Below are positions 28,863-62,454 of a DNA stretch of 64,000 nucleotides, piece by piece. A model generated the notes under the pieces. That model did no database searches, was not told where the DNA came from, and worked only from the letters and a program-made list of their open reading frames with translations. The position numbers were made by a program, and so were the translations under genes. How positions within the stretch are numbered: the first letter of the stretch is position 1; each line of letters starts with the position of its first letter. Source of the DNA: an uncultured virus (IMG/VR IMGVR_UViG_3300008113_011532). Lineage: Duplodnaviria > Heunggongvirae > Uroviricota > Caudoviricetes. Location of the stretch: IMG/VR virus record IMGVR_UViG_3300008113_011532. One strand, 5' to 3'.

Positions 28863-28973
28863 ATGAAAGCAACAACACTAAATATGGCAATCGTGAGAAA
28901 CTTGATGGTGAATATTACATTATGTAATATTAGACCAGACGAGGGTTCCAGCCTATTTGTGGATGTCGCATAA
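28863..28973 (+). CDS. Attenuator leader peptide 1 (MKATTLNMAIVRNLMVNITLCNIRPDEGSSLFVDVA)
   Basis: 36 codons; the L M V N I T L C N I R block matches the downstream tRNA set; contains gacgagggttc complementary to the terminator 5' arm. Confidence 0.85.
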   Translation: MKATTLNMAIVRNLMVNITLCNIRPDEGSSLFVDVA

Positions 28974-28994
28974 GCATTCGTGAAAAGAAACTCG

Positions 28995-29030
28995 AACCCT
29001 CAGTCAAAAAACTGAGGGTTTTTTGTTTTT
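28995..29030 (+). terminator. Attenuator terminator 1
   Basis: aaccctcagt-caaaaa-actgagggtt plus U-tract. Confidence 0.85.
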
Positions 29031-29035
29031 ATAAA

Positions 29036-29116
29036 AGATTGAAAAAGGAAGTTGATAAATGTATTTTAGTTTGTGCTAACTGCCATAGAGAAATACACGA
29101 TGAAATTTCCAAATAA
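29036..29116 (+). pseudogene. C-terminal remnant of an HNH endonuclease
   Basis: Translates RLKKEVDKCILVCANCHREIHDEISK* with no start codon. Confidence 0.65.
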
Positions 29117-29121
29117 CATAC

Positions 29122-29193
29122 GGACGGGTAGCTCAGAGGCAGAGCAAAACCCTGTTAAGGTTGAGGTCGAGATATCGTAATTCTCCCCGTCCG
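29122..29193 (+). tRNA. tRNA-Asn(GTT)
   Basis: Cloverleaf, anticodon loop ctGTTaa; atypical T-loop. Confidence 0.8.
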
Positions 29194-29203
29194 CTAGTAA
29201 AAT

Positions 29204-29290
29204 GGACTTGTAGCTGATAAGGTTTAGCTGGTGACTGTTAATCACTGAATGAAAAATGAAATAAAGTAGGTTCGAATCCTACCTGGTCCG
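29204..29290 (+). tRNA. tRNA-Asn(GTT) with an expanded A-rich variable region
   Basis: ggtga-ctGTTaa-tcact; ~19 nt unpaired variable region. Confidence 0.65.
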
Positions 29291-29302
29291 CAAAAAACAA
29301 CA

Positions 29303-29386
29303 CGGTAGGTACCCGAGCGGTCCCAGGGACTAGTCTGATACACTAGGCGCGAAAGCGCGACGTGGGTTCAAATCCCACCCTACCGA
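29303..29386 (+). tRNA. tRNA with Ile anticodon (GAT) and a class II long variable arm
   Basis: ctagt-ctGATac-actag; V-arm gcgc-gaaa-gcgc. Confidence 0.75.
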
Positions 29387-29391
29387 CAAAC

Positions 29392-29466
29392 AGTCCCGTC
29401 GTCCAATGGAAAGGACGTCGGTCTTCTAAACCGAAGATGTGGGTTCGACTCCCGCCGGGACTACCA
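29392..29466 (+). tRNA. tRNA-Arg(TCT)
   Basis: tcggt-ctTCTaa-accga; encoded CCA. Confidence 0.9.
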
Positions 29467-29470
29467 AGAC

Positions 29471-29544
29471 TGGAATATAGCTCAGTTGGTTAGAGCATTC
29501 GCCTGATACGCGAAAGGTCGCTGGTTCGAATCCAGCTATTCCAA
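29471..29544 (+). tRNA. tRNA-Ile(GAT)
   Basis: ttcgc-ctGATac-gcgaa. Confidence 0.9.
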
Positions 29545-29556
29545 CAAAAAATACAA

Positions 29557-29630
29557 GCACCGGTGGTCGAGCGGCTTTAGGCGCTGGCCTGCAAAGCCAG
29601 ATTACGTGGGTTCGAATCCCTCCCGGTGCT
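29557..29630 (+). tRNA. tRNA-Cys(GCA)
   Basis: ctggc-ctGCAaa-gccag. Confidence 0.9.
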
Positions 29631-29636
29631 CAAAAT

Positions 29637-29709
29637 GCCTTTGTAGCTCAGCTGGTAGAGCGCTTCACTTGTAATGAAGATGTCGCAGGTTCGACCCCTG
29701 TCAAAGGCT
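29637..29709 (+). tRNA. tRNA-Thr(TGT)
   Basis: cttca-ctTGTaa-tgaag. Confidence 0.9.
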
Positions 29710-29713
29710 CAAA

Positions 29714-29761
29714 TGATGCTCAAAGCGATGCTGTAAGTGATGCTGTAAATGATGCTCAAAA
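29714..29761. repeat. Four tandem ~12-bp repeats ((t/c)gatgct core)
   Basis: tgatgctcaaag cgatgctgtaag tgatgctgtaaa tgatgctcaaaa. Confidence 0.8.
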
Positions 29762-29762
29762 C

Positions 29763-29832
29763 GCCGCGGCTTAGTGGAAAAGAACCGTCTCTCATAAGGA
29801 CGGAAAAGTGAGTTCGAACCTCATACGCGGCA
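29763..29832 (+). tRNA. tRNA-Met(CAT), atypical short D-arm
   Basis: ccgtct-ctCATaa-ggacgg; T-arm gtgag-ttcgaac-ctcat. Confidence 0.65.
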
Positions 29833-29852
29833 CTAACTAAAAAAAGAAAGAC

Positions 29853-30011
29853 ATGAAATTCGAAGACTACTTCAAAAGCAAGTTTCCTTTCCTGAAGGAA
29901 AGCCAGGAAAGCCACACGATCGACATCGACTCGGACACGCTCATATACCTGGTGCAGGACTTCATCGACAAAGAAAGGAGCAGAGAAGACCAATCGAAGG
30001 CATTCGAGTAA
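29853..30011 (+). CDS. 52-aa hypothetical protein inside the tRNA cassette
   Basis: MKFEDYFKSKFPFLKES...; phage-like codon usage. Confidence 0.55.
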   Translation: MKFEDYFKSKFPFLKESQESHTIDIDSDTLIYLVQDFIDKERSREDQSKAFE

Positions 30012-30018
30012 CAGAAAC

Positions 30019-30091
30019 AGGGAATTAGCTCAATCGGGAGAGCACCAGTCTTACATACTGGAGGTAGCGGGATCGTAACCCGCATTCCCTA
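30019..30091 (+). tRNA. tRNA-Val(TAC)
   Basis: ccagt-ctTACat-actgg. Confidence 0.85.
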
Positions 30092-30093
30092 CT

Positions 30094-30198
30094 AGGCAGT
30101 GGCAACCGAAAGGGCTACTTCGTAAATGGTTTACAATTTGACTTCAAATCAAACTCCGCGGTTCAATTCCGCAAAACCCTACGGGACTTACCCTGCCT
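30094..30198 (+). ncRNA. tRNA-like RNA with UCA anticodon and an irregular, extended acceptor helix
   Basis: D-arm gtaa/ttac, tttga-ctTCAaa-tcaaa, T-arm gcgg-ttcaatt-ccgc; outer helix aggcag/ctgcct. Confidence 0.55.
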
Positions 30199-30202
30199 CT
30201 AC

Positions 30203-30285
30203 GCACCGGTGGTGAAACTGGAGATACACGCTGCGCTTAAACCGCAGTCCTTTATTGGTTGAGGGTTCGAGCCCCTTCCGGTGCA
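30203..30285 (+). tRNA. tRNA-Leu(TAA)
   Basis: ctgcg-ctTAAac-cgcag; long V-arm. Confidence 0.85.
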
Positions 30286-30318
30286 CTTAAATATATATAA
30301 AAGAAAAGTACAAAAAAC

Positions 30319-31089: not shown

Positions 31090-31135
31090 ATGAAAAAAAA
31101 AATCTAAATAAACTTCCTGGCAAGAAAAAAATACA

Positions 31136-31156
31136 TATATTTGTTCAGTTCTTTGA
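31136..31156 (+). promoter_or_regulatory. TAnnTTTG promoter followed by boxA-like GTTCTTTGA
   Basis: tatatttg 31136-31143; gttctttga 31148-31156. Confidence 0.55.
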
Positions 31157-31175
31157 GAGAAAGCAATAAATAAAA

Positions 31176-31257
31176 GCTCTTGTGGTGGAATTGGTAGACA
31201 CGCTAGACTTAGGATCTAGTGCCGCAAGGTGTGCGAGTTCGAGTCTCGCCAAGAGTA
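31176..31257 (+). tRNA. tRNA-Leu(TAG)
   Basis: ctaga-ctTAGga-tctag. Confidence 0.9.
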
Positions 31258-31280
31258 CAGAAAAAAAAACGCTTCAAAGC

Positions 31281-31343
31281 TTGTCGGAATGGAAATAATG
31301 ACTATCTTTGAAAAACAATAACAGAACAAAGGTTCTTTGACAT
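31281..31343 (+). promoter_or_regulatory. TTG...TATCTTTG promoter followed by boxA-like GTTCTTTGACAT
   Basis: Motifs at 31281, 31303-31310 and 31332-31343. Confidence 0.6.
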
Positions 31344-31364
31344 ACTAAAACAAAAACAATAAAT

Positions 31365-31445
31365 GCTCCGGTGGTGGAATGGTAGACACGCTCGTTTCAG
31401 AGGCGAGTGCCGCAAGGTGTGAGGGTTCAAGTCCCTTCTGGAGTA
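31365..31445 (+). tRNA. tRNA-Leu(CAG)
   Basis: ctcgt-ttCAGag-gcgag. Confidence 0.9.
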
Positions 31446-31451
31446 CAAAAA

Positions 31452-31525
<74 letters not shown>

Positions 31526-31533
31526 CTAAAAAC

Positions 31534-31605
<72 letters not shown>

Positions 31606-31625
31606 CGAAAAAATGTTCTAAAAAG

Positions 31626-31680
31626 TTTGGTGGAACGAAAAGAAACACTAACTTTGTAAAACAAACGAGGTCTTTGACAT
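31626..31680 (+). promoter_or_regulatory. TTTG...TAACTTTG promoter followed by boxA-like GGTCTTTGACAT
   Basis: Motifs at 31626, 31649-31656 and 31669-31680. Confidence 0.6.
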
Positions 31681-31691
31681 AACAAGAAAAC

Positions 31692-31763
31692 GGCGCCATA
31701 GTTCAAGGGATAGAATAGAAGTTTCCTAAACTTTAGATCCAGGTTCGAATCCTGGTGGGGCCA
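31692..31763 (+). tRNA. tRNA-Arg(CCT)
   Basis: gaagt-ttCCTaa-acttt. Confidence 0.88.
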
Positions 31764-31777
31764 CTAAAAAACAAAAC

Positions 31778-31860
31778 GCGCCGATGGCGAAATTGGTAGA
31801 CGCGCCATCCTGAGGGGGTGGTGTCCTATGGATGTGGGGGTTCAAGTCCCCCTCGGCGTA
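31778..31860 (+). tRNA. tRNA-Leu(GAG)
   Basis: ccatc-ctGAGgg-ggtgg. Confidence 0.88.
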
Positions 31861-31873
31861 CAAAAAACACAAC

Positions 31874-31955
31874 GGCCTTGTGTTGGAAATGGTAGACAAG
31901 CACGTTTGAGGGGCGTGTGCCGAAAGGCGTATGGGTTCAAGTCCCATCAAGGTCA
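31874..31955 (+). tRNA. tRNA-Leu(GAG), second copy
   Basis: cacgt-ttGAGgg-gcgtg. Confidence 0.85.
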
Positions 31956-32003
31956 CAAAAGAATGCTCAGGCAACCCCCTGGTGAAAGCATTCGAAAATA
32001 TAT

Positions 32004-32076
<73 letters not shown>

Positions 32077-32090
32077 CTAAAAAAATACAT

Positions 32091-32163
32091 TGCGCGGTGG
32101 AGAAGTAGGTATCTCGTGAGGCTCATAACCTTAAGATCGGCGGTTCGAGTCCGTCCTGCGCTA
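32091..32163 (+). tRNA. tRNA-fMet(CAT), second copy
   Basis: 1:72 mismatch, tgagg-ctCATaa-cctta. Confidence 0.8.
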
Positions 32164-32283
32164 CAAAAACCCAGGCAACCTCCTGGTAGAAACAGAATGC
32201 TCAGGCAACCCCCTGGTAAAAAGCATTCGAGCTCTTTGAAATGTCAAATACTAAAAATAAAGCTCAGGCGTAATTAACCTGCA

Positions 32284-32413
32284 GCCTGGATGGTTCGAAA
32301 CATCCGATTTGATATGGTGTACTGGGCACGACACCCGCCGCTGAGGTTCGAATCCTCAGGTAAGGAATGGCTACCACGGGAGTAAGATTGGGTTCGATTC
32401 CCTTTATCAGGCC
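32284..32413 (+). ncRNA. Putative structured RNA with three T-loop-like hairpins
   Basis: ggatg-gttcgaaa-catcc, ctgagg-ttcgaat-cctcag and ggg-ttcgatt-ccc, closed by gcctg/caggc. Confidence 0.4.
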
Positions 32414-32510
32414 AAAAGACCAGACAACCCTCTGGCAGCAACGCTAACACAGCACAATGCGGGCTCATACCTGCGGCGTAGTGTGACGGTCAGGAGAGAC
32501 TGACAACCTT

Positions 32511-32586
<76 letters not shown>

Positions 32587-32654
32587 ATCAAAGGTCGCTG
32601 CAACGGGCTGCGAGAGCCGAGGATCGAAATGTTTGCAGACATAGACATCTAGGC

Positions 32655-32727
32655 AGTGTGTTCGTATAGGGGACTAGTACGTCGTTCGCGAAGAACGGAA
32701 ACACGGGTTCGAGTCCCGTACACACAA
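32655..32727 (+). tRNA. tRNA-like gene with a Glu-type body and aberrant anticodon loop
   Basis: Acceptor gtgtgt/acacac, T-arm acggg-ttcgagt-cccgt; loop cgcgaag lacks U33. Confidence 0.5.
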
Positions 32728-32737
32728 CAAAAAATAC

Positions 32738-32810
32738 ACGGGTGTAGCTCAGCTGGTAGAGTAGTGGTCTCCAAAACCATTGGTCGTGGGTTCGAATCCT
32801 ACCTCCCGTG
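32738..32810 (+). tRNA. tRNA-Trp(CCA)
   Basis: gtggt-ctCCAaa-accat. Confidence 0.88.
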
Positions 32811-32812
32811 CT

Positions 32813-33020
32813 AGATTAGTAATCGATATGATGGAGGGAATAGCCATCGCGTGAATGGCCCGACCTTTTGCATCACGGATAGTTGCGCAAACAATACGTG
32901 GACTAGGAGGAAAGCTATAACCGGCAAGGATTAGAAATCAAGTCGGAAAGAAGCAAGTACAGAACCCGAACGGACGAACTTACTAAGTCCAAAGGGTAAG
33001 GGTGTCGACAATGCTAATCT
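32813..33020 (+). ncRNA. Putative ~210-nt ncRNA between two tRNAs
   Basis: Closing helix agattagt/gctaatct plus tcgata/tgtcga; no substantial ORF. Confidence 0.45.
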
Positions 33021-33023
33021 TAA

Positions 33024-33097
33024 GGTCTTGTAGCTCAGTTGGTTAGAGCACTGGTCTCATAAACCAGGGGTCCTCGGATCGTGCCCGAGCAGGACCA
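33024..33097 (+). tRNA. tRNA-Met/Ile2(CAT), elongator type
   Basis: ctggt-ctCATaa-accag. Confidence 0.85.
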
Positions 33098-33113
33098 CAC
33101 CAGTATCTGGTAC

Positions 33114-33923: not shown

Positions 33924-34024
33924 AAAAAACTTATTTTTAGTTTATATATAAAACTAGATGACCTATGGTTCGATTTTATTTTGGACTACATTTTTTTAAT
34001 CCAGTTCCACTTTATATATACTCT

Positions 34025-34660: not shown

Positions 34661-34722
34661 ATCGAAAAAAAGTTCCTATCTTTACAAAACAAAGGAAACG
34701 AAAACTTATATATACAATACTT

Positions 34723-34815
34723 ATGAAAACTTTCATCAACATAACAGCTATCTTCCCGCAGGATCAGGATCAACCGAAAAGGTTGTGGACTAGCTGCCTA
34801 TTGTCTGAAAGTTGA
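34723..34815 (+). CDS. Attenuator leader peptide 2 (MKTFINITAIFPQDQDQPKRLWTSCLLSES)
   Basis: PQDQDQP block matches the downstream Gln/Asp/Pro tRNAs; ggactagctg pairs with the terminator 5' arm. Confidence 0.88.
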   Translation: MKTFINITAIFPQDQDQPKRLWTSCLLSES

Positions 34816-34835
34816 TAAAGAACTTGAACGATATG

Positions 34836-34868
34836 AGCCCAGTTAGTCTTTGATTAGCTGGGTTTTTT
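34836..34868 (+). terminator. Attenuator terminator 2
   Basis: agcccagttagtc-ttt-gattagctgggtt plus U-tract. Confidence 0.85.
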
Positions 34869-34879
34869 CGTTTATACAA

Positions 34880-34953
34880 TGTCCCGTGGTGTAATTCGGC
34901 AACACGTCTGATTTTGGCTCAGAAGAGTCCAGGTTCGAGCCCTGGCGGGACAA
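34880..34953 (+). tRNA. tRNA-Gln(TTG)
   Basis: tctga-ttTTGgc-tcaga. Confidence 0.9.
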
Positions 34954-34963
34954 CAAAGAAAAC

Positions 34964-35035
34964 TGTCGAGTCGTCTAGTTGGCAGGACACGGGATTTTGA
35001 CTCCCGAGACACAGGTTCGAAGCCTGTCTCGACAA
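34964..35035 (+). tRNA. tRNA-Gln(TTG), second copy
   Basis: cggga-ttTTGac-tcccg. Confidence 0.88.
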
Positions 35036-35049
35036 CTAAAGCAGGAAAA

Positions 35050-35122
35050 GGTCCTGCAGTCCAGTGGAGTGGACGCCGCCCTGTCACGGCGGAGATCGTG
35101 GGTTCGAATCCCATCAGGACCG
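35050..35122 (+). tRNA. tRNA-Asp(GTC)
   Basis: ccgcc-ctGTCac-ggcgg. Confidence 0.9.
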
Positions 35123-35132
35123 CAAAACAAAA

Positions 35133-35206
35133 CGAGTAGTAGAGGAGTGGTTTATCTCGGGTGCATTGGAAGCATCAGCACGCAGGTTCGAATCCTGCCT
35201 ATTCGA
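35133..35206 (+). tRNA. tRNA-Pro(TGG)
   Basis: ggtgc-atTGGaa-gcatc. Confidence 0.8.
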
Positions 35207-35210
35207 CAAA

Positions 35211-35282
35211 GGTCCTGTCGTCCAATGGTAGGATAACCCGTTGTCTGCGGGATGGTTGCGGGTTCGAGCCCCGTCAGGACCG
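35211..35282 (+). tRNA. tRNA-Asp(GTC), second copy
   Basis: cccg-ttGTCtg-cggg. Confidence 0.8.
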
Positions 35283-35336
35283 CGAATATAACTAGGTGTA
35301 GATCAGTTGGTAGATCGGGTGGTTTGGGACCATCAG

Positions 35337-35540: not shown

Positions 35541-35605
35541 TACATCATTATTAGATGTTAATTCGTTAAAAAAATAAATATATACTCTAATAAAAAAACA
35601 ATGAT

Positions 35606-42206: not shown

Positions 42207-42853
42207 AGACAATACTTGCGGCACTGATAATATCTTTGCCGTTTTTCGGCCTCGCCCAGACCGACACGACCAAGACCGAAGAGGACACCGTGGACTACGA
42301 GTTTGTGGACTACACGGAGTACTACCACGTGACCAAAAACTCTGTAGACGCCTACCCGGAGGACGGCACGTTCGAGGATGACGTGCTCGACACGATTGCC
42401 TTCCACATCAGGACAGGAAGCCTAATCACTACCAACAAGGACGTCAACCTCAACGTAGCAATACTCGCCAGGGAATGGAGGCAGAAAGAGCTCAGAAAAA
42501 TCGGAAGCGCGGACACCATAGGAATGCCAATCAGCGACGACATAAACAACACAAGATCCATCAACTCGCTGTTCGACTTCAGATACCCGGCGTACGAGTA
42601 CATCGGCAAGCCCTTCGTTTTGCACATATTCGACCAGACAGAGAGCTGCGAGTGCTCGAAGTCAATATTCCAGGAAATAACAGGGAATAAGTACATAACT
42701 GAGGCACTGGCAGATCCGAGGCTGAAATGGATGACGTTCAGCTACTTCCAACACACCACAGAGCACGGCTTCGACGAGGAGTTCATCTTCGTCAGGTGGA
42801 AGAGGAAATGGGGCCTGCTCACCAGAGAGTATATGATTATATTAGGAGATTAA
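42197..42853 (+). CDS. Secreted hypothetical protein
   Basis: Signal peptide MEIKTILAALIISLPFFGLA. Confidence 0.6.
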   Translation: MEIKTILAALIISLPFFGLAQTDTTKTEEDTVDYEFVDYTEYYHVTKNSVDAYPEDGTFEDDVLDTIAFHIRTGSLITTNKDVNLNVAILAREWRQKELRKIGSADTIGMPISDDINNTRSINSLFDFRYPAYEYIGKPFVLHIFDQTESCECSKSIFQEITGNKYITEALADPRLKWMTFSYFQHTTEHGFDEEFIFVRWKRKWGLLTREYMIILGD

Positions 42854-42876
42854 CAACAAAAATAAAACCAAACAAA

Positions 42877-55420: not shown

Positions 55421-56317
55421 ATGAACGACGAACAAAATGAAAATATTGGTTCAAACCCATTAAGTAGATTGAGTCAGTTGTTAAGTGATGTACCAACGCT
55501 TTTAGATGAGATAATAACATTCGCATCTACAGAAGAAGGTAGAAAAACACTTAAATCCGGACTGGAAGACGCAGGCGGTCCAGATGACGATAAAGTAGAC
55601 ATCGACACAAATTGTACGGCAACGAAAGTCATAAAAACTCTACAGGCAACACAAAACGTAGTTTATATAGGAAACACGACAAAGATTGCAATACAGGGAT
55701 CAGAAGGTGACAAATTCGACGGACCACTTTACGATGGTGCCAAAAACGGAAAAGTTAGTGCGAACATATGGGTTGCCGGAAAAAGCGAACCAACACACAT
55801 CATCGATGGACACCACAGATGGAGCGCGATTTCTATGCTGAATCCTGATACAGAGATTACAGGGATGATTTGGATAAAACTGGAACCAAACGTGGCACTT
55901 GCATTTTTGACAGCCGCACTTAGAGCTAGAGAATCAAAAGATCAAGGACAAGGCGCACCTACTGGCAACGTAACGCCAGTAAAAGGAAACTGCAAACCCG
56001 ATGTAATACTTCAAGAGTTGAACAAGTTAGGAGAAGATAGAGCCAGTGCCTTCATCAACAAATACAAATCAGACTTCAACGTAGAAGGTGAGGTTGTAGA
56101 AAAACTAGCATCAAACCTAGCAACAATCCAGGGAAATATACCTGCAAATGCACCAAAAAGAGAGCTAATGCCACAATTAGGATTCCATAAGACTGATTTG
56201 AACCTCGAAGACGAGACTATCGACATGCTAACTAAAGGGGAGGTTGACGTTAGAGAACCATTTGCAGAGAACACGAAGTGGATCAAGACCTACGAGCAGT
56301 TCAGGAACAAAAAATAA
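55421..56317 (+). CDS. ParB/Srx-like domain protein
   Basis: TQ and IIDGHHRW motifs; C-terminal WIKTYEQF motif. Confidence 0.6.
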   Translation: MNDEQNENIGSNPLSRLSQLLSDVPTLLDEIITFASTEEGRKTLKSGLEDAGGPDDDKVDIDTNCTATKVIKTLQATQNVVYIGNTTKIAIQGSEGDKFDGPLYDGAKNGKVSANIWVAGKSEPTHIIDGHHRWSAISMLNPDTEITGMIWIKLEPNVALAFLTAALRARESKDQGQGAPTGNVTPVKGNCKPDVILQELNKLGEDRASAFINKYKSDFNVEGEVVEKLASNLATIQGNIPANAPKRELMPQLGFHKTDLNLEDETIDMLTKGEVDVREPFAENTKWIKTYEQFRNKK

Positions 56318-56411
56318 AAAAAAGAGGAAAATCTTTCACGGAATACAAAACTTAGCTATATTTGTATCGTAAAAGAAAAAACGAAAGACAACAACTCTAA
56401 TATATACAACA

Positions 56412-56531
56412 ATGACAACGAACAGCAAACATAAGCATTTTAGTAAATCAAGCAAGTGGTTTAGCAAAAAACCCGAACTTGGTACTGGCAAAGTATTGCG
56501 TTTGTTCTCAGAGGATCTTACGACCATATAG
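56412..56531 (+). CDS. Attenuator leader peptide 3 (MTTNSKHKHFSKSSKWFSKKPELGTGKVLRLFSEDLTTI)
   Basis: K/H/F/W block matches the downstream His/Phe/Lys/Trp tRNAs; gaacttgg pairs with the terminator arm ccaagttc. Confidence 0.85.
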   Translation: MTTNSKHKHFSKSSKWFSKKPELGTGKVLRLFSEDLTTI

Positions 56532-56550
56532 ACAAAACAATAAAAGACAG

Positions 56551-56586
56551 AAACCCAAGTTCACGAGACTTGGGTTTTTTTGTTTT
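56551..56586 (+). terminator. Attenuator terminator 3
   Basis: aaacccaagtt-cacga-gacttgggttt plus U-tract. Confidence 0.85.
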
Positions 56587-56592
56587 ACACAT

Positions 56593-56665
56593 GGTGTGTG
56601 TAGCTCAGAGGCAGAGCGCTGGTTTGTGAAGCCAGAGGCCGGGATTTCGAAACTCCTCACGCACC
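56593..56665 (+). tRNA. tRNA-His(GTG)
   Basis: ctggt-ttGTGaa-gccag; G-1 and C73. Confidence 0.85.
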
Positions 56666-56676
56666 CAACATAACAA

Positions 56677-56752
56677 GGAGCTGTGGCAGATGTGGTCATT
56701 GCGCTGGACTGAAAATTCAGAGGAACGGGATCGTAACCCGTCGGCTCCACCA
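56677..56752 (+). tRNA. tRNA-Phe(GAA)
   Basis: ctgga-ctGAAaa-ttcag; encoded CCA. Confidence 0.85.
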
Positions 56753-56756
56753 AAAT

Positions 56757-56828
56757 TGCCTTGTAGCTGAGCGGTAAAGCACCTGACTCTTAATCAGGGG
56801 ATCGCAGGTTCAATCCCTGCCGGGGCAA
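56757..56828 (+). tRNA. tRNA-Lys(CTT)
   Basis: cctga-ctCTTaa-tcagg. Confidence 0.9.
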
Positions 56829-56840
56829 CAAAAAATACAA

Positions 56841-56913
56841 GCGTCGTTGGTGTAACGGCTTAGCATCTCTGGCTCCAACCCAGAGGGTCAGGGTTCGAAT
56901 CCTTGGCGGCGCG
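56841..56913 (+). tRNA. tRNA-Trp(CCA)
   Basis: tctgg-ctCCAac-ccaga. Confidence 0.88.
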
Positions 56914-56921
56914 CAAAATAT

Positions 56922-56996
56922 GACTTCGTAGCTCAGTTGGTTCAGAGCACTCCACTTTTAATGGAGGGGTCGTGGGTTCGAGCCCCACCGGGGTCA
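56922..56996 (+). tRNA. tRNA-Lys(TTT)
   Basis: ctcca-ctTTTaa-tggag. Confidence 0.9.
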
Positions 56997-56998
56997 CT

Positions 56999-57072
56999 GT
57001 GTCGGTAGCTCAGTCGGTCAGAGCGCTGGTTTGTGGAACCAGAGGTCGCGGGTTCAAGTCCCGTTCGACACC
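56999..57072 (+). tRNA. tRNA-His(GTG), second copy
   Basis: ctggt-ttGTGga-accag. Confidence 0.85.
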
Positions 57073-57077
57073 GAAAC

Positions 57078-57114
57078 GTGGATGTAGCTCAGCAGTTAGT
57101 GCACGAGATTGAAA
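57078..57114 (+). pseudogene. 5' half of a tRNA-Phe(GAA), truncated at the anticodon
   Basis: gtggatg-ta-gctc..gtgc-a-cgaga-ttGAAa followed by A-rich sequence. Confidence 0.55.
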
Positions 57115-57163
57115 TAAAAACAAAGAAGCACATAAAGCGTATAAAACAAAAAAAGAACGACAT

Positions 57164-57784
57164 ATGCTAATAAGGTTTCAAGACATAGTAAACAAATACG
57201 GGAAACCGAAAGGAATAATACACATAGGCGCACACCTAATGGAAGAAAGGACCGACTATATATCCTACGGACTATTCAACACCATCTGGGTAGAGGCAAA
57301 TCCGAGAGTCTTCGAATCAATAAGCTATGTCAACAACTTCGACTCGGAGGAAAAGGCTTTCAATTTCGCAATCTCGGACAAAGACGGCGAGACCGTGAAA
57401 CTGAACGTCACCAACAACGGCCAATCATCTTCAATACTCGAGTTGGAAAAGCACAAAATCCACCATCCGACAATCTTTGTAAGCGACGTGATTGAAGTAA
57501 AGACCAAAAGAATGGAAACTCTAATACAGGAAAACGGAATTAAAATTGAAAACTACGACTTCCTGAACATAGACATACAGGGTGCAGAACTTCTGGCACT
57601 CAAAGGCTTCGGCGAAATGCTGAATAGCATTTCGAGGATATACATAGAAATCAACACCAACGAACTGTACAAAGGATGTCCACTCGTTGGCGAGATTGAC
57701 GAATACCTAAGCAAATTTGGATTCCACAGGGCAGAAACCGCACTTACCGAGTTCGAATGGGGAGATGCTCTTTACATAAAGTGA
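57164..57784 (+). CDS. FkbM-family methyltransferase
   Basis: HIGAH, VEANP, SSSIL and NIDIQGAELLALKG motifs. Confidence 0.9.
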   Translation: MLIRFQDIVNKYGKPKGIIHIGAHLMEERTDYISYGLFNTIWVEANPRVFESISYVNNFDSEEKAFNFAISDKDGETVKLNVTNNGQSSSILELEKHKIHHPTIFVSDVIEVKTKRMETLIQENGIKIENYDFLNIDIQGAELLALKGFGEMLNSISRIYIEINTNELYKGCPLVGEIDEYLSKFGFHRAETALTEFEWGDALYIK

Positions 57785-58005
57785 TGAACCGGATCGACCT
57801 GCACGGAACAAAACACACCGAAGTACAGCAGAGACTCGACCAGTTCTACTGGGAGGCAATGCAACGCGGGCACTTCGAAGTCGAAGTCGTTACCGGTATA
57901 AGCGCCAGGATGAAGGAAATAGTGAGGAATGTTTCAAAGGACTACAACTTCAATGTCGAGGAAATACCACTGAATCCAGGATCGCTAATCGTTAGAATAA
58001 AATGA
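57784..58005 (+). CDS. Stand-alone Smr-domain protein
   Basis: IDLHG...EVVTG...NPGSLIV. Confidence 0.7.
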   Translation: MNRIDLHGTKHTEVQQRLDQFYWEAMQRGHFEVEVVTGISARMKEIVRNVSKDYNFNVEEIPLNPGSLIVRIK

Positions 58006-58184
58006 TGGAAATACTTAAGATAGAGGATTACAAATACTCGATAATCTACACAATGAACGAGGGTAAAGCCGAAGTACACAAACGAAAAGATGACGGCACC
58101 TGGCAGTCACTCAGAAACGGTAAGTGGATCGAAACAAAGGACTTTGCGGACATCGAGAAGGCACTTAAAACCAATAAAAAATAA
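58002..58184 (+). CDS. Small hypothetical protein
   Basis: Coupled 60 aa ORF. Confidence 0.5.
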   Translation: MMEILKIEDYKYSIIYTMNEGKAEVHKRKDDGTWQSLRNGKWIETKDFADIEKALKTNKK

Positions 58185-58190
58185 GAAAAG

Positions 58191-58318
58191 TAGGGAGTAG
58201 CTCAGCTGGTAGAGCACGTACAATACTCGTTTATGACTTTGCCTCGCAAGAGTGCCGAATAGAAGAGTTACTTCGGCTGTTAACCGCGTGGTCGCAGGTT
58301 CGAATCCTGTCTCCCTAC
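58191..58318 (+). ncRNA. tRNA-Asn(GTT)-like RNA with a 55-nt insertion in the anticodon stem (possible permuted Y/YrlA-like RNA)
   Basis: Acceptor tagggag/ctcccta with canonical D and T arms; removing 58219-58273 gives cgcgg-ctGTTaa-ccgcg. Confidence 0.7.
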
Positions 58319-58367
58319 CGAAATGTAAACATACGTTGATTGTAGAGATACAATAGTAAAATATAAA

Positions 58368-59999
58368 TTGATAATGTTCCAAAAAACAATCGCAATCTAT
58401 GGCTCACACGACTCGTCGTTCACATTCATAGACAATTCCGGTCAGCTAAGAATATTCGAGGTCGAAAGATTCACAAAGCAGAGGTATTCTTCGTTCTCCA
58501 AAAGGTTCGACACTCAATCAACCGGAATAAACGATCAGCTTAGGGAAGACTTCATAAACATGTTGAAGGAAAGACTTTTCGACAAAGACATCACAACAGT
58601 ACTTTACGAGGAAGTCTTCGAGGACGACTTCATCTTTCTGAGAAAACACTTCCCAAACGCAAACTTCGTTAAGTGGGACGACCACCACAAATCACACGCA
58701 TACTCAGCAATACAAAACTCCGGTTTCGAAGACTCAATCATATTGTCAATCGACGGAAGTGGGATCAATTCAGGTTCAACAAAGGTATTCGACTACCAGG
58801 ATAAAAAACTCTCACTGATAGACAACCATATGGTGAATCTCGGGCAGGCCTATACAATAAGCACACTACCACTCGTGGATATAACACATCAAAATCCGAA
58901 AGCCGAACTTCTATCCGCAGCTGGTAAATTCATGGGCATATGCGCTTACGGTGATGTCATCGAAGACTGGATTGCGCCTTTCCATGATTTTTATCTCAAT
59001 TTCATAAACTCTTCCTTCGAGGATTCATTGAGGAAGCTAACCCAACGACTAAAGCTGGAAGAGATAAATTTCGACCGAATTTACGAGAACGAGTCTTTCA
59101 ACCTGACAGGTGTCAAAGTGCTCACAGGTAAGAAAGCATACGACTTCGCAGCAACCTCTCAATTCGTGTTCGAAAAAATCGTTCTAAGTCTGGTAGAATT
59201 TTTTGTAGACAAATACAACAAGAACGTAATACTAACAGGAGGTTGCGCACTCAACGTTCTTGCTAACCAAAAGATTTTCGAGTATCTCAACAAAAGAGGA
59301 CTCTCACTCTACGTGCCACCGAATCCTTCAGACTGTGGTATCTCTTACGGAATGTGGATGTCCTACTTCACAGATTTCGAAAGTGGCGAGACTTGCTTTT
59401 CCGGTATTGAAATACTCGACGAAGACAAAATCGAAGTTTACGAAAACAACCACGCATACGAACCACTCACCTACGAATCGGTAGTCGGACACCTCAAGGC
59501 CGGTAAAATAATCGGCATCATCGACGGCAACTCAGAGGTCGGACCAAGAGCCCTCGGCAACCGAAGTATAATTTGCGATCCGTCATACGAGGGAATGAAA
59601 GACATACTGAATAGTAAAGTAAAGTTCCGAGAGTGGTTCAGGCCCTTTGCGCCTGTATGCACAGATGAGTACATGGAAACATACTTCGAAAACGCGTTCA
59701 GTTCAAAGTACATGACTTACGCACCTAAAGTCAAAGAAGAGTTTCGAAAACTATTACCTTCAATCACACACGCGGACGGTACCTCAAGGCTACAGACCGT
59801 TCACAGCGACGGAAGTCATTTCCATAGCATACTGACAGAGCTGAAAAGGCAAGGGCACATACCAGTAATACTCAACACATCATTCAACATAAAAGGAAGA
59901 CCGATACTTACGTCTTTGGAAGACGCATTTTACGTACTCGACAACACGCAACTGGATCTTCTAATACATAACGGTAAAATATATTCGAAGAAAGATTAG
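58368..59999 (+). CDS. Carbamoyltransferase (NodU/CmcH family)
   Basis: HDSS, EVERF, HHKSHA, GKFMG, GGCALN, EVGPRALGNRS, REWFRPFAP and LNTSFN motifs. Confidence 0.92.
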   Translation: MIMFQKTIAIYGSHDSSFTFIDNSGQLRIFEVERFTKQRYSSFSKRFDTQSTGINDQLREDFINMLKERLFDKDITTVLYEEVFEDDFIFLRKHFPNANFVKWDDHHKSHAYSAIQNSGFEDSIILSIDGSGINSGSTKVFDYQDKKLSLIDNHMVNLGQAYTISTLPLVDITHQNPKAELLSAAGKFMGICAYGDVIEDWIAPFHDFYLNFINSSFEDSLRKLTQRLKLEEINFDRIYENESFNLTGVKVLTGKKAYDFAATSQFVFEKIVLSLVEFFVDKYNKNVILTGGCALNVLANQKIFEYLNKRGLSLYVPPNPSDCGISYGMWMSYFTDFESGETCFSGIEILDEDKIEVYENNHAYEPLTYESVVGHLKAGKIIGIIDGNSEVGPRALGNRSIICDPSYEGMKDILNSKVKFREWFRPFAPVCTDEYMETYFENAFSSKYMTYAPKVKEEFRKLLPSITHADGTSRLQTVHSDGSHFHSILTELKRQGHIPVILNTSFNIKGRPILTSLEDAFYVLDNTQLDLLIHNGKIYSKKD

Positions 60000-60049
60000 T
60001 AATAATCGAAAACAAACGTTACATTTGTAATATATAAACAAAGACAACT

Positions 60050-60121
60050 ATGAAAGCATCTGTAAACATATCAAGCTCATCAAGTCGCTCATCAGCGGCC
60101 GAGGTCCGATTGTGTTTATAG
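60050..60121 (+). CDS. Attenuator leader peptide 4 (MKASVNISSSSSRSSAAEVRLCL)
   Basis: SSSSSRSS block matches the downstream Arg(ACG) and four Ser tRNAs; ccgagg pairs with the terminator arm cctcgg. Confidence 0.88.
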   Translation: MKASVNISSSSSRSSAAEVRLCL

Positions 60122-60144
60122 CTGTCGCATAACGATATTGTATG

Positions 60145-60175
60145 AACCCTCGGAAGAAACGCCGAGGGTTTTTTT
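60145..60175 (+). terminator. Attenuator terminator 4
   Basis: aaccctcgg-aagaaacg-ccgagggtt plus U-tract. Confidence 0.85.
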
Positions 60176-60179
60176 ATTT

Positions 60180-60251
60180 GGTTCCATCGTCCAACGGAAA
60201 GGACAGGTCGCTACGAACGATCAGATGGGGGTTCGAATCCCTCTGGGACTA
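60180..60251 (+). tRNA. tRNA-Arg(ACG)
   Basis: ggtcg-ctACGaa-cgatc. Confidence 0.9.
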
Positions 60252-60256
60252 CAAAA

Positions 60257-60347
60257 GGAGAAATAAGAGCAGTGTGGACTAAGCTCGGCGCACTTGAAAT
60301 GCGTAGGCCCTCGAGGTGTCTGGGTTCGAGCCCCAGTTTCTCCGCCA
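60257..60347 (+). tRNA. tRNA-Ser(TGA)
   Basis: gcgca-ctTGAaa-tgcgt; long V-arm, G73, CCA. Confidence 0.85.
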
Positions 60348-60361
60348 AAAAGTTAAATTAT

Positions 60362-60447
60362 GGAGAGCAAACCAGGGAGGTCCCTGGCACCGCCTGCTAA
60401 GCGAGTGGCCCGTTTTTTCGGGTGGGCTTCGACTGCTCTGCTCTCCG
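60362..60447 (+). tRNA. tRNA-Ser(GCT), 8/4 fold
   Basis: 8-bp acceptor ggagagca/tgctctcc; 4-bp T-stem gggc/gctc. Confidence 0.8.
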
Positions 60448-60453
60448 CAACAT

Positions 60454-60537
60454 GGAAGATGAACTGCAGCGGCCTGCAGCCCTGTCTCGAAAACAGCGGG
60501 TACCTCCGGGTATTGGGATCGACACCTACTTCTTCCG
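60454..60537 (+). tRNA. tRNA-Ser(CGA), 8/4 fold
   Basis: ctgt-ctCGAaa-acag; 8-position acceptor and 4-bp T-stem. Confidence 0.75.
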
Positions 60538-60542
60538 CAACT

Positions 60543-60626
60543 GGAAAGCTATCCCTGATGGTGATGGGGTCCGCCTGGAAAGCGCGACGTACCGCGAGGT
60601 ATACGGTTCGATTCCGTAGTTTTCCG
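60543..60626 (+). tRNA. tRNA-Ser(GGA), 8/4 fold
   Basis: Acceptor ggaaagct/agttttcc; T-stem acgg/ccgt. Confidence 0.8.
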
Positions 60627-60672
60627 CAAACAAAAGACGCATAAGTCCGTATAAAACAAAAAAATACAGTCT

Positions 60673-61065
60673 ATGCGAAAACTCATATTGGCCGTTCTAG
60701 CCATAACTTCGCTCCTGGCAACATCATGCCGTAGGTGCGAGGATCCGAAAGCACTCAACTACAGTTTAGATGCGATGGGCCGTGAGGACAACACGATCTG
60801 CAAGTACTCGAAGGCGATATTCTACGTATCCGGGCCGGCGAACTATCCACCACTCACACTCTACGTCAACGGATCTTCCGAGGGGACAATCTCAGGGTTC
60901 TATCCGTACGGACCTGGCAACTGCAGCGCCACAGGTTGCGCGGTATACCAGTTCACATCCGGCAACAGCATCGACTGGGAAGTCAGAGACGCCGTAGGAA
61001 ACGTAGTGAACGGAACATCCGAGCCGAGCCAGTACCAAGAGTGCATAAAAATAAGAGTATACTGA
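60673..61065 (+). CDS. Lipoprotein
   Basis: Signal peptide with lipobox-like LATSC; CEDPKALNY motif. Confidence 0.7.
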   Translation: MRKLILAVLAITSLLATSCRRCEDPKALNYSLDAMGREDNTICKYSKAIFYVSGPANYPPLTLYVNGSSEGTISGFYPYGPGNCSATGCAVYQFTSGNSIDWEVRDAVGNVVNGTSEPSQYQECIKIRVY

Positions 61066-61382
61066 TGATAAAAAAACTGATATACACGATTGCCGCCATA
61101 GTAACACTTTTCTTAGCAGAACCTACACAGGCTCAGAGCGGTTGGCAGGCAGGGCAATACTACCAATACGAGGGCCAAAGAACAATAGACTGCGATCCTT
61201 TCTGGGTCAAGGCCACACCATTCGGCATCGAAAGAAGATGCAGAATACTACAATGGGAAAAGCAATACTATACAGGAAACATACAAGTCTGGAACGGTTG
61301 GCAGTGGGTTTCACAATGGCAGACTACCTGGGCATGGTACTGTTGGTGGGGACCGTGGTACTTCCAGTACTCAGCACGATAG
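61065..61382 (+). CDS. Secreted Trp/Gln-rich small protein
   Basis: Signal peptide MIKKLIYTIAAIVTLFLA; many Trp residues in the C-terminal half. Confidence 0.65.
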   Translation: MIKKLIYTIAAIVTLFLAEPTQAQSGWQAGQYYQYEGQRTIDCDPFWVKATPFGIERRCRILQWEKQYYTGNIQVWNGWQWVSQWQTTWAWYCWWGPWYFQYSAR

Positions 61383-61500
61383 TTTTTTTACTTATTTTCA
61401 ATAAAATACAAAAAGAGAGAAAAAAACTTTTATATATAATCAACAAGTAAAGGAAAAACACCTATATTTGTAGAGTAAACAAAGACTAAAAACTGAAACA

Positions 61501-61587
61501 ATGAAAGCAACATTCAAAATAGAGGCCATAGGGTATGCGTATGAGGCGGGACGCCACATATCCGGACTGACTTTGTCTTTTGAGTAG
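61501..61587 (+). CDS. Attenuator leader peptide 5 (MKATFKIEAIGYAYEAGRHISGLTLSFE)
   Basis: IEAIGYAYEAG block matches the downstream Glu/Tyr/Ile(TAT)/Gly/Ala tRNAs; cggactg pairs with cagtctg. Confidence 0.88.
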   Translation: MKATFKIEAIGYAYEAGRHISGLTLSFE

Positions 61588-61608
61588 TTGATATATTACG
61601 ATATTGAG

Positions 61609-61640
61609 AAGCCCAGTCTGAGAAACAGACTGGGCTTTTT
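61609..61640 (+). terminator. Attenuator terminator 5
   Basis: aagcccagtctg-agaaa-cagactgggctt plus U-tract. Confidence 0.88.
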
Positions 61641-61647
61641 CGTTTAT

Positions 61648-61721
61648 GGTCCGTTCGTCTAGCGGTTTAGGACATCTTCCTTTCACGAAGAAGATCACGG
61701 GTTCGAATCCCGTACGGATCA
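61648..61721 (+). tRNA. tRNA-Glu(TTC)
   Basis: tcttc-ctTTCac-gaaga. Confidence 0.9.
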
Positions 61722-61744
61722 CAAAAAAAAAAAATGAAAAATAC

Positions 61745-61827
61745 TGGAAGGTGGCCGAGTGGTTAAAGGCGGCAGACTGTAAATCTGCTCTCGAAAGAGT
61801 ACGGGGGTTCGAATCCCTCCCTTCCAA
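61745..61827 (+). tRNA. tRNA-Tyr(GTA)
   Basis: gcaga-ctGTAaa-tctgc; long V-arm. Confidence 0.9.
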
Positions 61828-61833
61828 CAACAT

Positions 61834-61907
61834 GGTCCGTTAGTGAAGCGGCTTAACACGTCTCCCTTTCACGGAGAAGATCACGGGTTCGAATCCCGTA
61901 CGGACTA
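61834..61907 (+). tRNA. tRNA-Glu(TTC), second copy
   Basis: tctcc-ctTTCac-ggaga. Confidence 0.9.
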
Positions 61908-61914
61908 CAGAAAC

Positions 61915-61988
61915 TGGTAAGTAGCTTAGACGGTAGAAGCACGTGTCTTATACACACGAGATAGTGGGTTCGATACCCACCTTACCAA
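61915..61988 (+). tRNA. tRNA-Ile(TAT)
   Basis: cgtgt-ctTATac-acacg. Confidence 0.85.
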
Positions 61989-61995
61989 CAGAAAA

Positions 61996-62067
61996 GCAGG
62001 TATCGTACAACGGTTAGTACAGGGCACTTCCAATGCTCAGATGTCGGTTCGATTCCGGTTACCTGCA
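61996..62067 (+). tRNA. tRNA-Gly(TCC)
   Basis: gggca-ctTCCaa-tgctc. Confidence 0.88.
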
Positions 62068-62127
62068 CAAAAAGACTTAAAAGTCCTGCGTACACAGGAC
62101 GCGAGAAGGTTAGTCTTCCTTCTATCC

Positions 62128-62201
62128 GGGGCAGCATGTACCAAGGCAGGCGAGGAACACTTGCAATGTTCCTGTGGTGGGTTCGATTTCCACCTGCTCC
62201 A
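62128..62201 (+). tRNA. tRNA-Ala(TGC)
   Basis: gaaca-ctTGCaa-tgttc; G3:U70; atypical D-arm. Confidence 0.75.
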
Positions 62202-62226
62202 CGGAAACAAAAAATAAAAAGAAGAT

Positions 62227-62370
62227 ATGAAGAAAAGGACAGTTATCGAGGGCACAATGAGATCCAGCAGGGAAACGATGAGAAGAGAAGTAGAAACCAA
62301 CATCTCAATACTGGAGGCGATAAAAAAAATTGTGAGAAGGATTAAACAAAAGAGAAACGTAGAGATATAA
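62227..62370 (+). CDS. 47-aa basic hypothetical peptide inside the tRNA cassette
   Basis: [11 protein letters not shown]... read directly from the sequence. Confidence 0.4.
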
Positions 62371-62381
62371 ACTTTACAAAC

Positions 62382-62454
62382 GCGAGAATAGCTCAGTTGG
62401 TAGAGCGCCACCTTGCCAAGGTGGAGGTCGCGGGTTCGAATCCCGTTTCTCGCT
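62382..62454 (+). tRNA. tRNA-Gly(GCC)
   Basis: ccacc-ttGCCaa-ggtgg. Confidence 0.92.

Follow-up and report, generated by a model that had tools for sequence, protein, structure and literature searches.

The leaders ilvL and thrL, which precede the ilvGMEDA and thr operons of Escherichia coli and Salmonella, are multivalent leader-peptide attenuators of amino-acid operons. The hisL leader of the his operon contains a run of seven His codons, and in E. coli the pheM leader attenuates pheST, an aminoacyl-tRNA synthetase operon. The T-box riboswitch, which needs no translation, binds one uncharged tRNA directly. To our knowledge, the targets of all classical leader-peptide attenuators are amino-acid biosynthesis or aminoacyl-tRNA synthetase genes, and this mode of control is known only from amino-acid operons and one synthetase operon. 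Phage tRNA arrays are usually seen as constitutive codon-usage patches or as spares against tRNA-cleaving defences, and we know of essentially no account of how phages control their own tRNA genes. Here we analyse five tRNA cassettes in a 64-kb stretch of DNA from an uncultured virus of the Caudoviricetes (IMG/VR record IMGVR_UViG_3300008113_011532; the whole stretch is called the window below). Each cassette is preceded by a short leader open reading frame (ORF) and an intrinsic terminator. An earlier note on this DNA had read these units as attenuators that gate tRNA genes. Our analysis supports that reading through the codon match, the co-variation of leaders with cassettes, the antiterminator co-variation and a frame-specific synonymous excess. 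Judged from these sequence features, each unit is probably a multivalent ribosome-mediated transcription attenuator, with its tRNA cassette autoregulated by decoding capacity.

As in ilvL and thrL, a short leader carries the codons of several amino acids, the antiterminator and the terminator are mutually exclusive, and a stall on any of these codons would lead to read-through. The units differ from ilvL and thrL in being carried by a phage and in having tRNA genes as targets instead of biosynthetic enzymes, with a sensor that consumes the product itself. They differ further in a match at the level of isoacceptors (ATA versus ATY, AGA versus CGC, all six Leu codons), in the lack of a supported 1:2 anti-antiterminator and in the lack of a match to any Rfam leader family. 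The poly-Gln leaders found in relatives of the window (QQQQQQQ before three or four tRNA-Gln genes) resemble hisL as a run of codons for a single amino acid. Unlike hisL, they have a tRNA-Gln cassette as target, an ORF of only 16-23 codons and an antiterminator that overlaps the stop codon. With pheM-pheST the units would share leader-peptide attenuation of a component of the translation apparatus, which is a synthetase in that system and the tRNAs themselves in the phage. Like the T-box, they place a choice between terminator and antiterminator, set by the state of specific tRNAs, ahead of translation-related genes, but the phage sensor is an in-frame ORF of many codons and has no T-box match. 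The genes downstream of the leaders are tRNAs, not the biosynthesis or synthetase genes that define the classical targets. Full-text literature searching, judged mostly from search listings, returned no description of leader-peptide attenuation for tRNA genes or for phage tRNA arrays.

Leader codons match the adjacent tRNA cassettes

The window, which has genes for a baseplate hub and an endolysin, is phage DNA. Aragorn called 41 tRNAs in it, all on the + strand, to which Rfam added a tRNA-Ser with anticodon TGA (60257-60344) and a weak tRNA with anticodon CAT (29763-29832; 30.2 bits, cut-off 29). Nine strong + strand terminators were found in the 64 kb, and five of the nine stand 8-101 nt upstream of a tRNA cassette. 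These five have GC-rich stems of 10-15 bp followed by a T tract, and an ATG ORF lies ahead of each, encoding 36, 30, 39, 23 and 28 residues in the units that we call C1 to C5. The units extend over 28807-30286 (C1), 34707-35283 (C2), 56347-57072 (C3), 60020-60627 (C4) and 61431-62455 (C5). All five share one order: promoter-like motifs, a leader ORF of 23-39 residues, a segment of that ORF complementary to the 5' arm of the terminator, the intrinsic terminator and the tRNAs. The common layout claimed in the earlier note was thus borne out by the tRNA, terminator and leader ORF calls. Its claim that the cassettes together cover all 20 amino acids also holds, with Met and Ser resting on weak calls. 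Met within cassette 1 depends on the weak call at 29763-29832, or else on distal leaderless Met tRNAs, and Ser coverage on one Rfam call together with relaxed-threshold or by-eye calls.

Matches between codons and anticodons were counted with simple wobble rules, using strict tRNA calls together with Rfam-supported and relaxed calls within the cassettes. In the five window units, 62 of 151 leader codons are decodable by the leader's own cassette. The true assignment of leaders to cassettes was the single best of the 120 possible permutations (62, with 48 for the next best and a mean of 25.4), and none of 100,000 random sets of in-frame gene segments reached 62 (mean 26.9, standard deviation 4.5). 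The earlier note had proposed that each codon block names the amino acids of its own cassette and had suggested a permutation of leader codons against cassette anticodons as a check; the identity assignment proved uniquely best, and the proposal stands.

Matched codons cluster into uninterrupted blocks, which precede the complementary segment. Among the 22 distinct strict anticodons of the window cassettes, 21 have a cognate codon in their own leader, the exception being Gly-gcc; in the wider comparison with relatives the figure is 227 of 247. Codon choice follows the isoacceptor. Ile is written ATT or ATC ahead of tRNA-Ile(gat) and ATA ahead of tRNA-Ile(tat), Arg is written AGA ahead of tRNA-Arg(tct) and CGC ahead of tRNA-Arg(acg), and the C3 leader uses both AAA and AAG before a cassette with both tRNA-Lys species. 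We did not rely on a simple count of the leaders that have their highest raw match with their own cassette (2-6 of 7 in each genome), because cassette 1 is large: it can decode about 23% of all codons and so takes many rows through size alone.

Leaders change with their cassettes in related megaphages

The nearest DNA relatives of the window are the uncultured megaphage genomes LR756502.1 (642 kb; W01) and LR745206.1 (635 kb; W02), which one study describes as freshwater and subsurface megaphages of more than 630 kb (PMC9723777). Another assigns five genomes of more than 634 kb to the Mahaphage clade, with predicted replication in Bacteroidetes, and the terms 'attenuat', 'leader' and 'terminator' are absent from it (PMC7162821). 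We took all tRNA regions of W01 and W02 and of five IMG/VR contigs of 249-508 kb (G001-G005), and added loci from searches with two leader-derived DNA patterns. The set comprised 73 leader-terminator-tRNA units, or 65 non-redundant units when identical sequences were counted once, and 64 were used in the tests. Locus L012, in which the ORF MESVKPVVALKNIEVIKG precedes a lone tRNA-Met outside all leader families, was excluded from the unit counts. In L052 an inner ORF (1587-1640) was used instead of a longer out-of-family ORF for the antiterminator z-scores, the permutations and the start-codon and anticodon counts; this unit is absent from the own-versus-cross arm, 1:2 duplex, nascent-transcript and synonymous-share tests. 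Viral contigs searched with the carbamoyltransferase encoded at 58368-59999 gave no relative. Two stretches of the genome contigs that fitted the C3 leader pattern were rejected as chance matches, neither having a unit of leader, terminator and tRNA.

The design is kept throughout the relatives, in which the number of separate leaders rises to as many as seven. In six related genomes the identity assignment was the unique best of 5040, 5040, 5040, 5040, 720 and 24 permutations, results that are not independent because the genomes are related, which weakens them as support for attenuation. The independent evidence is the existence of two partitions of the tRNAs together with the split and merge events.

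Gln, Asp and Pro are merged in the window, G005 and G003 behind a single leader of the ..PQDQDQP.. type. In W01, W02, G001, G002 and G004 Gln is split off, leaving a Pro/Asp cassette and a separate terminator with a poly-Gln leader and Gln-only tRNAs; examples of such leaders are MTTSFQQQQQQQINRTD, MTTTQQIQQQQINQTD, MRTTTQYQQQQQINPTD and ..QQVQQQQ... The Glu/Tyr and Ile(tat)/Gly/Ala sets likewise share one cassette in the window, G002, L026 and L033, whereas W01, W02, G001, G003 and G004 have them split. All four combinations of merged and split states are present. An IMG/VR scan with the Q-leader pattern gave seven loci, two of them in G001 and G004, and all seven have a terminator and Gln-only tRNAs. 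In one IMG/VR contig (L070) the poly-Gln leader is in frame with an upstream ORF of about 220 codons, and there it may form the end of a longer protein or be translated from an ATG within that ORF.

The 735-kb genome LR756501.1 has a different tRNA partition, and its leaders match the new sets, with 51 of 117 leader codons matched under the true assignment, which ranks first among 24 permutations. In this genome {Glu, Met, Gln, Ile-tat} stand behind the leader MNFRIINMIQEQMQQIQ.. / ..IINMIQEQMQQIQ.., {Arg, Pro, Ala, Thr, Val, Gly} behind ..TPAPAVAFRRGTGTGTGTCVPAGCG.. and {Trp, His, Phe, Lys, Ser} behind ..SKHSKHFSSSSKWF.., while the leader ahead of five tRNA-Leu genes (tag, gag, caa, taa, tag) uses CTA, CTT, CTG, TTA, CTC and TTG, that is all six Leu codons. 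The co-variation of leaders and cassettes that the earlier note had proposed looking for is therefore present, both in the splits and in the repartition of LR756501.1. The Arg codon count of Ser/Arg leaders at first seemed to follow the tRNA-Arg gene count, but this did not stand up, several single-Arg cassettes having RSSR in their leader.

A chance origin would see in these units ordinary operon terminators with fortuitous small ORFs, or ORFs whose composition is dictated by a hairpin, and no sensing. This idea draws on C1, in which the stretch AAT ATT ACA TTA TGT AAT ATT is a perfect hairpin that alone forces pairs of Asn/Ile and Thr/Cys codons. The hairpin, written AATATTACA-TTA-TGTAATATT (28908-28934), has a perfect 9-bp stem in all eight aligned homologues, with a conserved ..IRPxEG.. 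peptide after it, and might serve to pause the polymerase or to slow translation. Its TGT is retained in C1-type leaders of several genomes with no tRNA-Cys in the cassette (W01, W02, L015/L017, G001 and G002), as part of the conserved hairpin, an imperfect match that also counts against attenuation. Yet the random segment sets never reached the observed match, the poly-Gln, all-six-Leu and KHKHF blocks are non-palindromic, and the leaders vary with cassette content across genomes, and we regard a chance origin as extremely improbable.

We give just as little credence to the idea that the small ORFs are functional micro-proteins merely co-located with tRNAs. The C-terminal parts of the leaders are indeed moderately conserved (E[VI]RL[CY][LS] in C4, CNIRPxEG in C1), as such proteins might be, but these parts correspond to the stretch of RNA that is complementary to the terminator, and the composition of the ORFs tracks the adjacent tRNAs and not any one peptide family.

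The terminator arm has a partner in the leader

In every unit the terminator 5' arm pairs best with a segment that follows the matched block in the 3' part of the leader; 59 of 64 units have this segment inside the ORF. Compared with dinucleotide shuffles, the antiterminator pairing had a mean z of -2.6, with z < -2 in 34 of 64 units; the window values were -3.6 (C1), -2.9 (C4), -2.3 (C3), -0.8 (C2) and -0.7 (C5). Permutations of a unit's own arm against the arms of its homologues gave 0/5000 for C1, 1/5000 for C3, 1/5000 for C4 and 98/5000 for C5-EY. In an alignment of eight C1 homologues the antiterminator helix is 80.8% paired, compared with 25-52% when slid. This helix has seven invariant pairs and five pairs changed on both sides, and its covariation score was reached by 2 of 500 shuffles. 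Compensatory changes were also seen within the terminator of the C4 family. The expectation of compensatory changes between antiterminator and terminator thus holds in the C1, C3 and C4 families; in C5b, C2 and Q the result was non-significant.

Rfam over the whole window gave only tRNA matches at the gathering score, with no leader family and no T-box. The best score of a leader family was that of Phe_leader (16.3 bits, cut-off 55, E = 4.1), and none of His_leader, Leu_leader, Thr_leader, Trp_leader and Phe_leader was found in 56300-61660.

Reading frame of the leaders

An ATG followed by A starts 63 of 64 leaders, the second residue being K, T, R or N. Among aligned codons that differ, the synonymous share was 23.3% in the ATG frame versus 11.2% and 11.9% in the other two frames, and alignment gaps within the leader ORFs are multiples of three. 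These features bear on the possibility of an untranslated RNA sensor, in which codon-like triplets would bind anticodons directly and a T-box-like specifier array would set the choice between terminator and antiterminator. T-box riboswitches do read tRNAs through a specifier codon, and the leader triplets do match the cassette anticodons. We nevertheless consider such a sensor very unlikely. From an ATG to a stop codon the triplets follow one another without interruption in a single frame, the gaps keep that frame, the synonymous share is doubled in it alone and the start is nearly invariant. The leaders match neither the T-box nor any other Rfam family, and seven to twenty adjacent codons could presumably not hold a tRNA each.

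Geometry and proposed mechanism

The share of matched codons is 46% upstream of the antiterminator (576/1244) and 16% from it onward (94/578). Of the 670 matched codons, 496 are separated from the antiterminator by 13 nt or more on its upstream side, and a ribosome stalled at any of these would therefore leave it free. The earlier note had warned that a ribosome stalled on the last sensor codons could itself cover the antiterminator. This concern does not apply to the 496 codons; it stands for another 80, at which a stalled ribosome would occlude the antiterminator, and a further 94 lie at or after it. Both groups count against the attenuator reading.

The stop codon lies 16-35 nt ahead of the terminator. 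We modelled nascent transcripts in which the 3' arm of the terminator is not yet made and the 5' arm pairs with upstream sequence (n = 63). A ribosome stalled on the block gave a mean sequestration of the 5' arm of 0.78, compared with 0.64 for transcripts that carry none. The mean was 0.43 for a ribosome at the stop codon and 0.31 for one positioned over the antiterminator; this last figure is partly circular, since the antiterminator segment is defined as the arm's best partner. The rise from 0.64 to 0.78 comes mainly from C3, C4 and Q. For C4 the modelled sequestration was 0.24 without a ribosome and 0.98 with a ribosome stalled on the block.

These observations suggest the following mechanism. 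Transcription would start at a host-type TAnnTTTG promoter, at a phage TATATATA-type motif just before the leader, or at both, and the leader ORF would be translated, its central block consisting of codons of the downstream tRNAs. With charged cognate tRNA plentiful, the ribosome would cross the antiterminator while the polymerase makes the terminator; the terminator hairpin would then form and transcription would halt 8-101 nt before the first tRNA. With any cognate tRNA scarce, the ribosome would stall in the block, leaving the antiterminator free to pair with the emerging 5' arm of the terminator. Once the 5' arm is captured, the polymerase would read through and the cassette would be transcribed. 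Its tRNAs would relieve the stall, and because the regulated genes are the tRNAs that the leader codons consume, each cassette would form a negative-feedback loop on its own decoding capacity. We infer leader translation, the direction of the switch and its physiological trigger from the arrangement of the units.

Extra tRNA is no help if amino acids are missing, so a shortage of tRNA seems the more sensible signal. Such a shortage could come from host tRNA decay, from cleavage by anticodon nucleases or from a demand that exceeds supply late in infection. The triggers named in the earlier note, starvation and host anticodon nucleases, and the anti-defence role that it proposed are conjectural.

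Several further observations weigh against attenuation. The antiterminator complementarity is no better than in shuffles in several families (among them C2, z -0.8, and C5, z -0.7). The comparison of own and cross arms was non-significant in C5b (629/5000), C2 (3732/5000) and Q (1056/5000), where the terminator arms hardly vary and the test is consequently low in power. A duplex test for a classical 1:2 anti-antiterminator gave a mean z of -0.4, with z < -2 in 6 of 63 units. A ribosome that has reached the stop codon would not cover the antiterminator of C1-family units (0.88 sequestration), so that termination in C1 must rest on timing or sterics. Some leader codons are out of place: Ser codons occur in the C3 leader, although the Ser tRNAs of the window have a leader of their own and lie 3.5 kb further downstream (most relatives have the Ser/Arg cassette directly after C3), and Gln codons are retained in the Pro/Asp leaders of the split genomes. 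Some tRNAs, finally, have no leader. In the window 13 of the 41 tRNAs (31176-33098) are leaderless and have promoter-like motifs of their own, a cassette of LR756501.1 (Ile, Cys, Asp, Asn, Tyr, His) has no leader ORF, and the tRNAs of Prevotella phage Lak-C1 are dispersed, a scan upstream of each having found no leader/terminator unit.

The lack of support for a 1:2 pairing, the weak antiterminators of the C2, C5, C5b and Q families and the exposed antiterminator of C1 would suit a different output as well. The leader could be translated and its codons could matter, with the result being altered processing or stability of the precursor RNA, or an inverted logic in which smooth translation leads to read-through. 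We think this unlikely. The complement of the arm invariably follows the block, within the ORF or at its end, as expected if a stall leads to read-through; it co-varies with the arm in three families, and the modelled sequestration of the arm peaks with the ribosome on the block. Attenuation of the tRNA cassettes by ribosome stalling remains the reading that we prefer.

If it is true, the largest known phages would gauge decoding capacity for each codon family and make tRNA sets on demand, and ribosome-mediated attenuation would be extended to a new class of target, one whose sensor has the regulated RNA itself as its ligand. The units would make it possible to test directly when and why phages need their tRNAs. 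Leader and terminator, about 170 nt together, would be compact natural parts that report the availability of chosen tRNAs, and small leader ORFs beside phage tRNA genes deserve annotation. A broader proposal is distinctly more doubtful. Megaphages of the Mahaphage group might have a modular tRNA network with isoacceptor resolution, every cassette being induced by stalling on its own codons and silenced by the tRNAs that it encodes. It would be the first instance of tRNA genes under leader-peptide attenuation. With a sensor that reads decoding capacity directly, the network would also respond to anticodon nucleases of the host or to decay of host tRNAs, and would act as an automatic, cassette-specific counter-defence.

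Features of the individual units

All features described in this section lie on the + strand. In C1 the promoter-like motifs TATATTTG (28807-28814) and TATATATACAA (28848-28858), read from the sequence, precede the leader ORF (28863-28973), which encodes the 36-residue peptide MKATTLNMAIVRNLMVNITLCNIRPDEGSSLFVDVA; 20 of 35 codons are decodable by cassette 1. Inside this ORF the matched codon block (about 28872-28934) is followed by the antiterminator segment CGAGGGTTCC (28940-28949), complementary to the terminator 5' arm GAACCCTC, with a free energy (dG) of -15.1 versus -7.7 in shuffles. The intrinsic terminator (28994-29030) has an 11-bp stem and a T tract. Cassette 1 (29122-30286) contains two Asn, two Ile(gat), Arg(tct), Cys, Thr(tgt), a weak Met-like, Val(tac) and Leu(taa) tRNAs, in the order Asn, Asn, Ile(gat), Arg(tct), Ile, Cys, Thr, [Met], Val, Leu. 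Also in this cassette, a weak tRNA-like element with anticodon TCA (30110-30181) was called by Aragorn at a relaxed threshold only and scored as tRNA-Sec in Rfam with 26 bits (cut-off 47). This element may read UGA or may be a tRNA in decay.

C2 begins with a TATATATACAA motif (34707-34717), followed by a leader ORF of 30 residues (34723-34815; ..FPQDQDQPKR..). Its block CCG CAG GAT CAG GAT CAA CCG (34756-34776) has seven contiguous matched codons. The antiterminator candidate GGACTAGCTGC (34787-34797) is predicted in the fold without the 3' arm, and the CTAACT-like motif found there is kept in all eight members of the C2 family. The terminator (34835-34873) has a 14-bp stem, and cassette 2 (34880-35283) comprises Gln, Gln, Asp, Pro and Asp by Aragorn.

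In C3 the promoter-like motifs are TATATTTG (56347-56354) and TAATATATACAA (56398-56409). The leader ORF (56412-56531) encodes 39 residues (..KHKHFSKSSKWFSKK..), and 13 of its 38 codons are matched; the block, at 56427-56471, reads K H K H F S K S S K W F S K K. The antiterminator GAACTTGGTACTGG (56475-56488) and a terminator with a 13-bp stem (56549-56587) lead to cassette 3 (56594-57072), which holds His, Phe, Lys(ctt), Trp, Lys(ttt) and His by Aragorn.

C4 has the promoter-like motifs TACATTTG and TAATATATAAAC (60020-60039) ahead of the shortest of the five leader ORFs (60050-60121), with 23 residues (..SSSSSRSS..) and the block TCA AGC TCA TCA AGT CGC TCA TCA (60071-60094). The antiterminator (60098-60120) has the core CCGAGG, and the terminator (60144-60179) a 10-bp stem. 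Cassette 4 (60180-60627) consists of tRNA-Arg(acg) (60180-60252), the tRNA-Ser(tga) added by Rfam (60257-60344) and then class-II tRNA-Ser-like elements, which are weak calls: GCT at about 60360-60447 (by eye), cga at about 60458-60536 and gga at 60543-60627. In one public lake-water run a DNA contig skips 60346-60451, the stretch with the GCT tRNA-Ser-like element, which points to a related strain that lacks this element. Among public runs none of RNA was listed as containing the region; one labelled RNA-Seq is probably DNA, and a second RNA run gave no match, results that do not bear on expression.

The promoter-like motifs of C5 are TATATATAA (61431-61439) and TATATTTG (61463-61470). Its leader ORF (61501-61587) encodes 28 residues (..IEAIGYAYEAG..) with 14 of 27 codons matched, and the block ATA GAG GCC ATA GGG TAT GCG TAT GAG GCG GGA occupies 61519-61551. 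An antiterminator candidate with the core GGACTG (61562-61578) is likewise predicted in the fold without the 3' arm. Behind a terminator with a 15-bp stem (61606-61646), cassette 5 (61648-62455) carries Glu, Tyr, Glu, Ile(tat), Gly(tcc), Ala(tgc) and Gly(gcc), and it ends at a terminator at 62457-62474.

Over all genomes, TAnnTTTG occurs at most 80 nt upstream in 44 of 64 units, compared with 1.7 expected from shuffles; we take it to be the Bacteroidetes -7 promoter element. A second motif, TATATATA[AC]A, stands directly ahead of leader ATGs and is probably a phage-specific promoter. The same motif was seen 15-30 nt before many start codons on both strands of the window (for example 30292, 33943, 40334 and 50704 on the + strand; 26745 and 16963 on the - strand). 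In C2 to C5 only 8-15 nt separate the terminator from the first tRNA, which leaves no space for a bypass promoter.

Leaderless tRNAs and neighbouring genes

The leaderless tRNAs at 31176-33098 (+ strand) comprise Leu x5, Val, Thr, Arg(cct), Met x3, Ala(ggc), Ser? and Trp, entered as 13 further tRNAs, and their own motifs are TAnnTTTG-like. They are outside leader control or only distally under it. The interior of this region contains T-arm-like fragments (32260-32420) and a stretch of about 200 nt (32810-33020). In LR756501.1 a GC-rich structured stretch lies ahead of the leaderless cassette (L058, minus strand 850-1290), and the end of the upstream gene resembles, by eye, the C-terminus of ribosomal protein L7/L12.

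Other genes of the window include a GAF-PAS-HATPase sensor-kinase-like gene (52488-54278) and a gene of the nicotinate phosphoribosyltransferase family (42727-44409). An FkbM methyltransferase and a carbamoyltransferase form a pair (57164-59999) between two of the tRNA cassettes.

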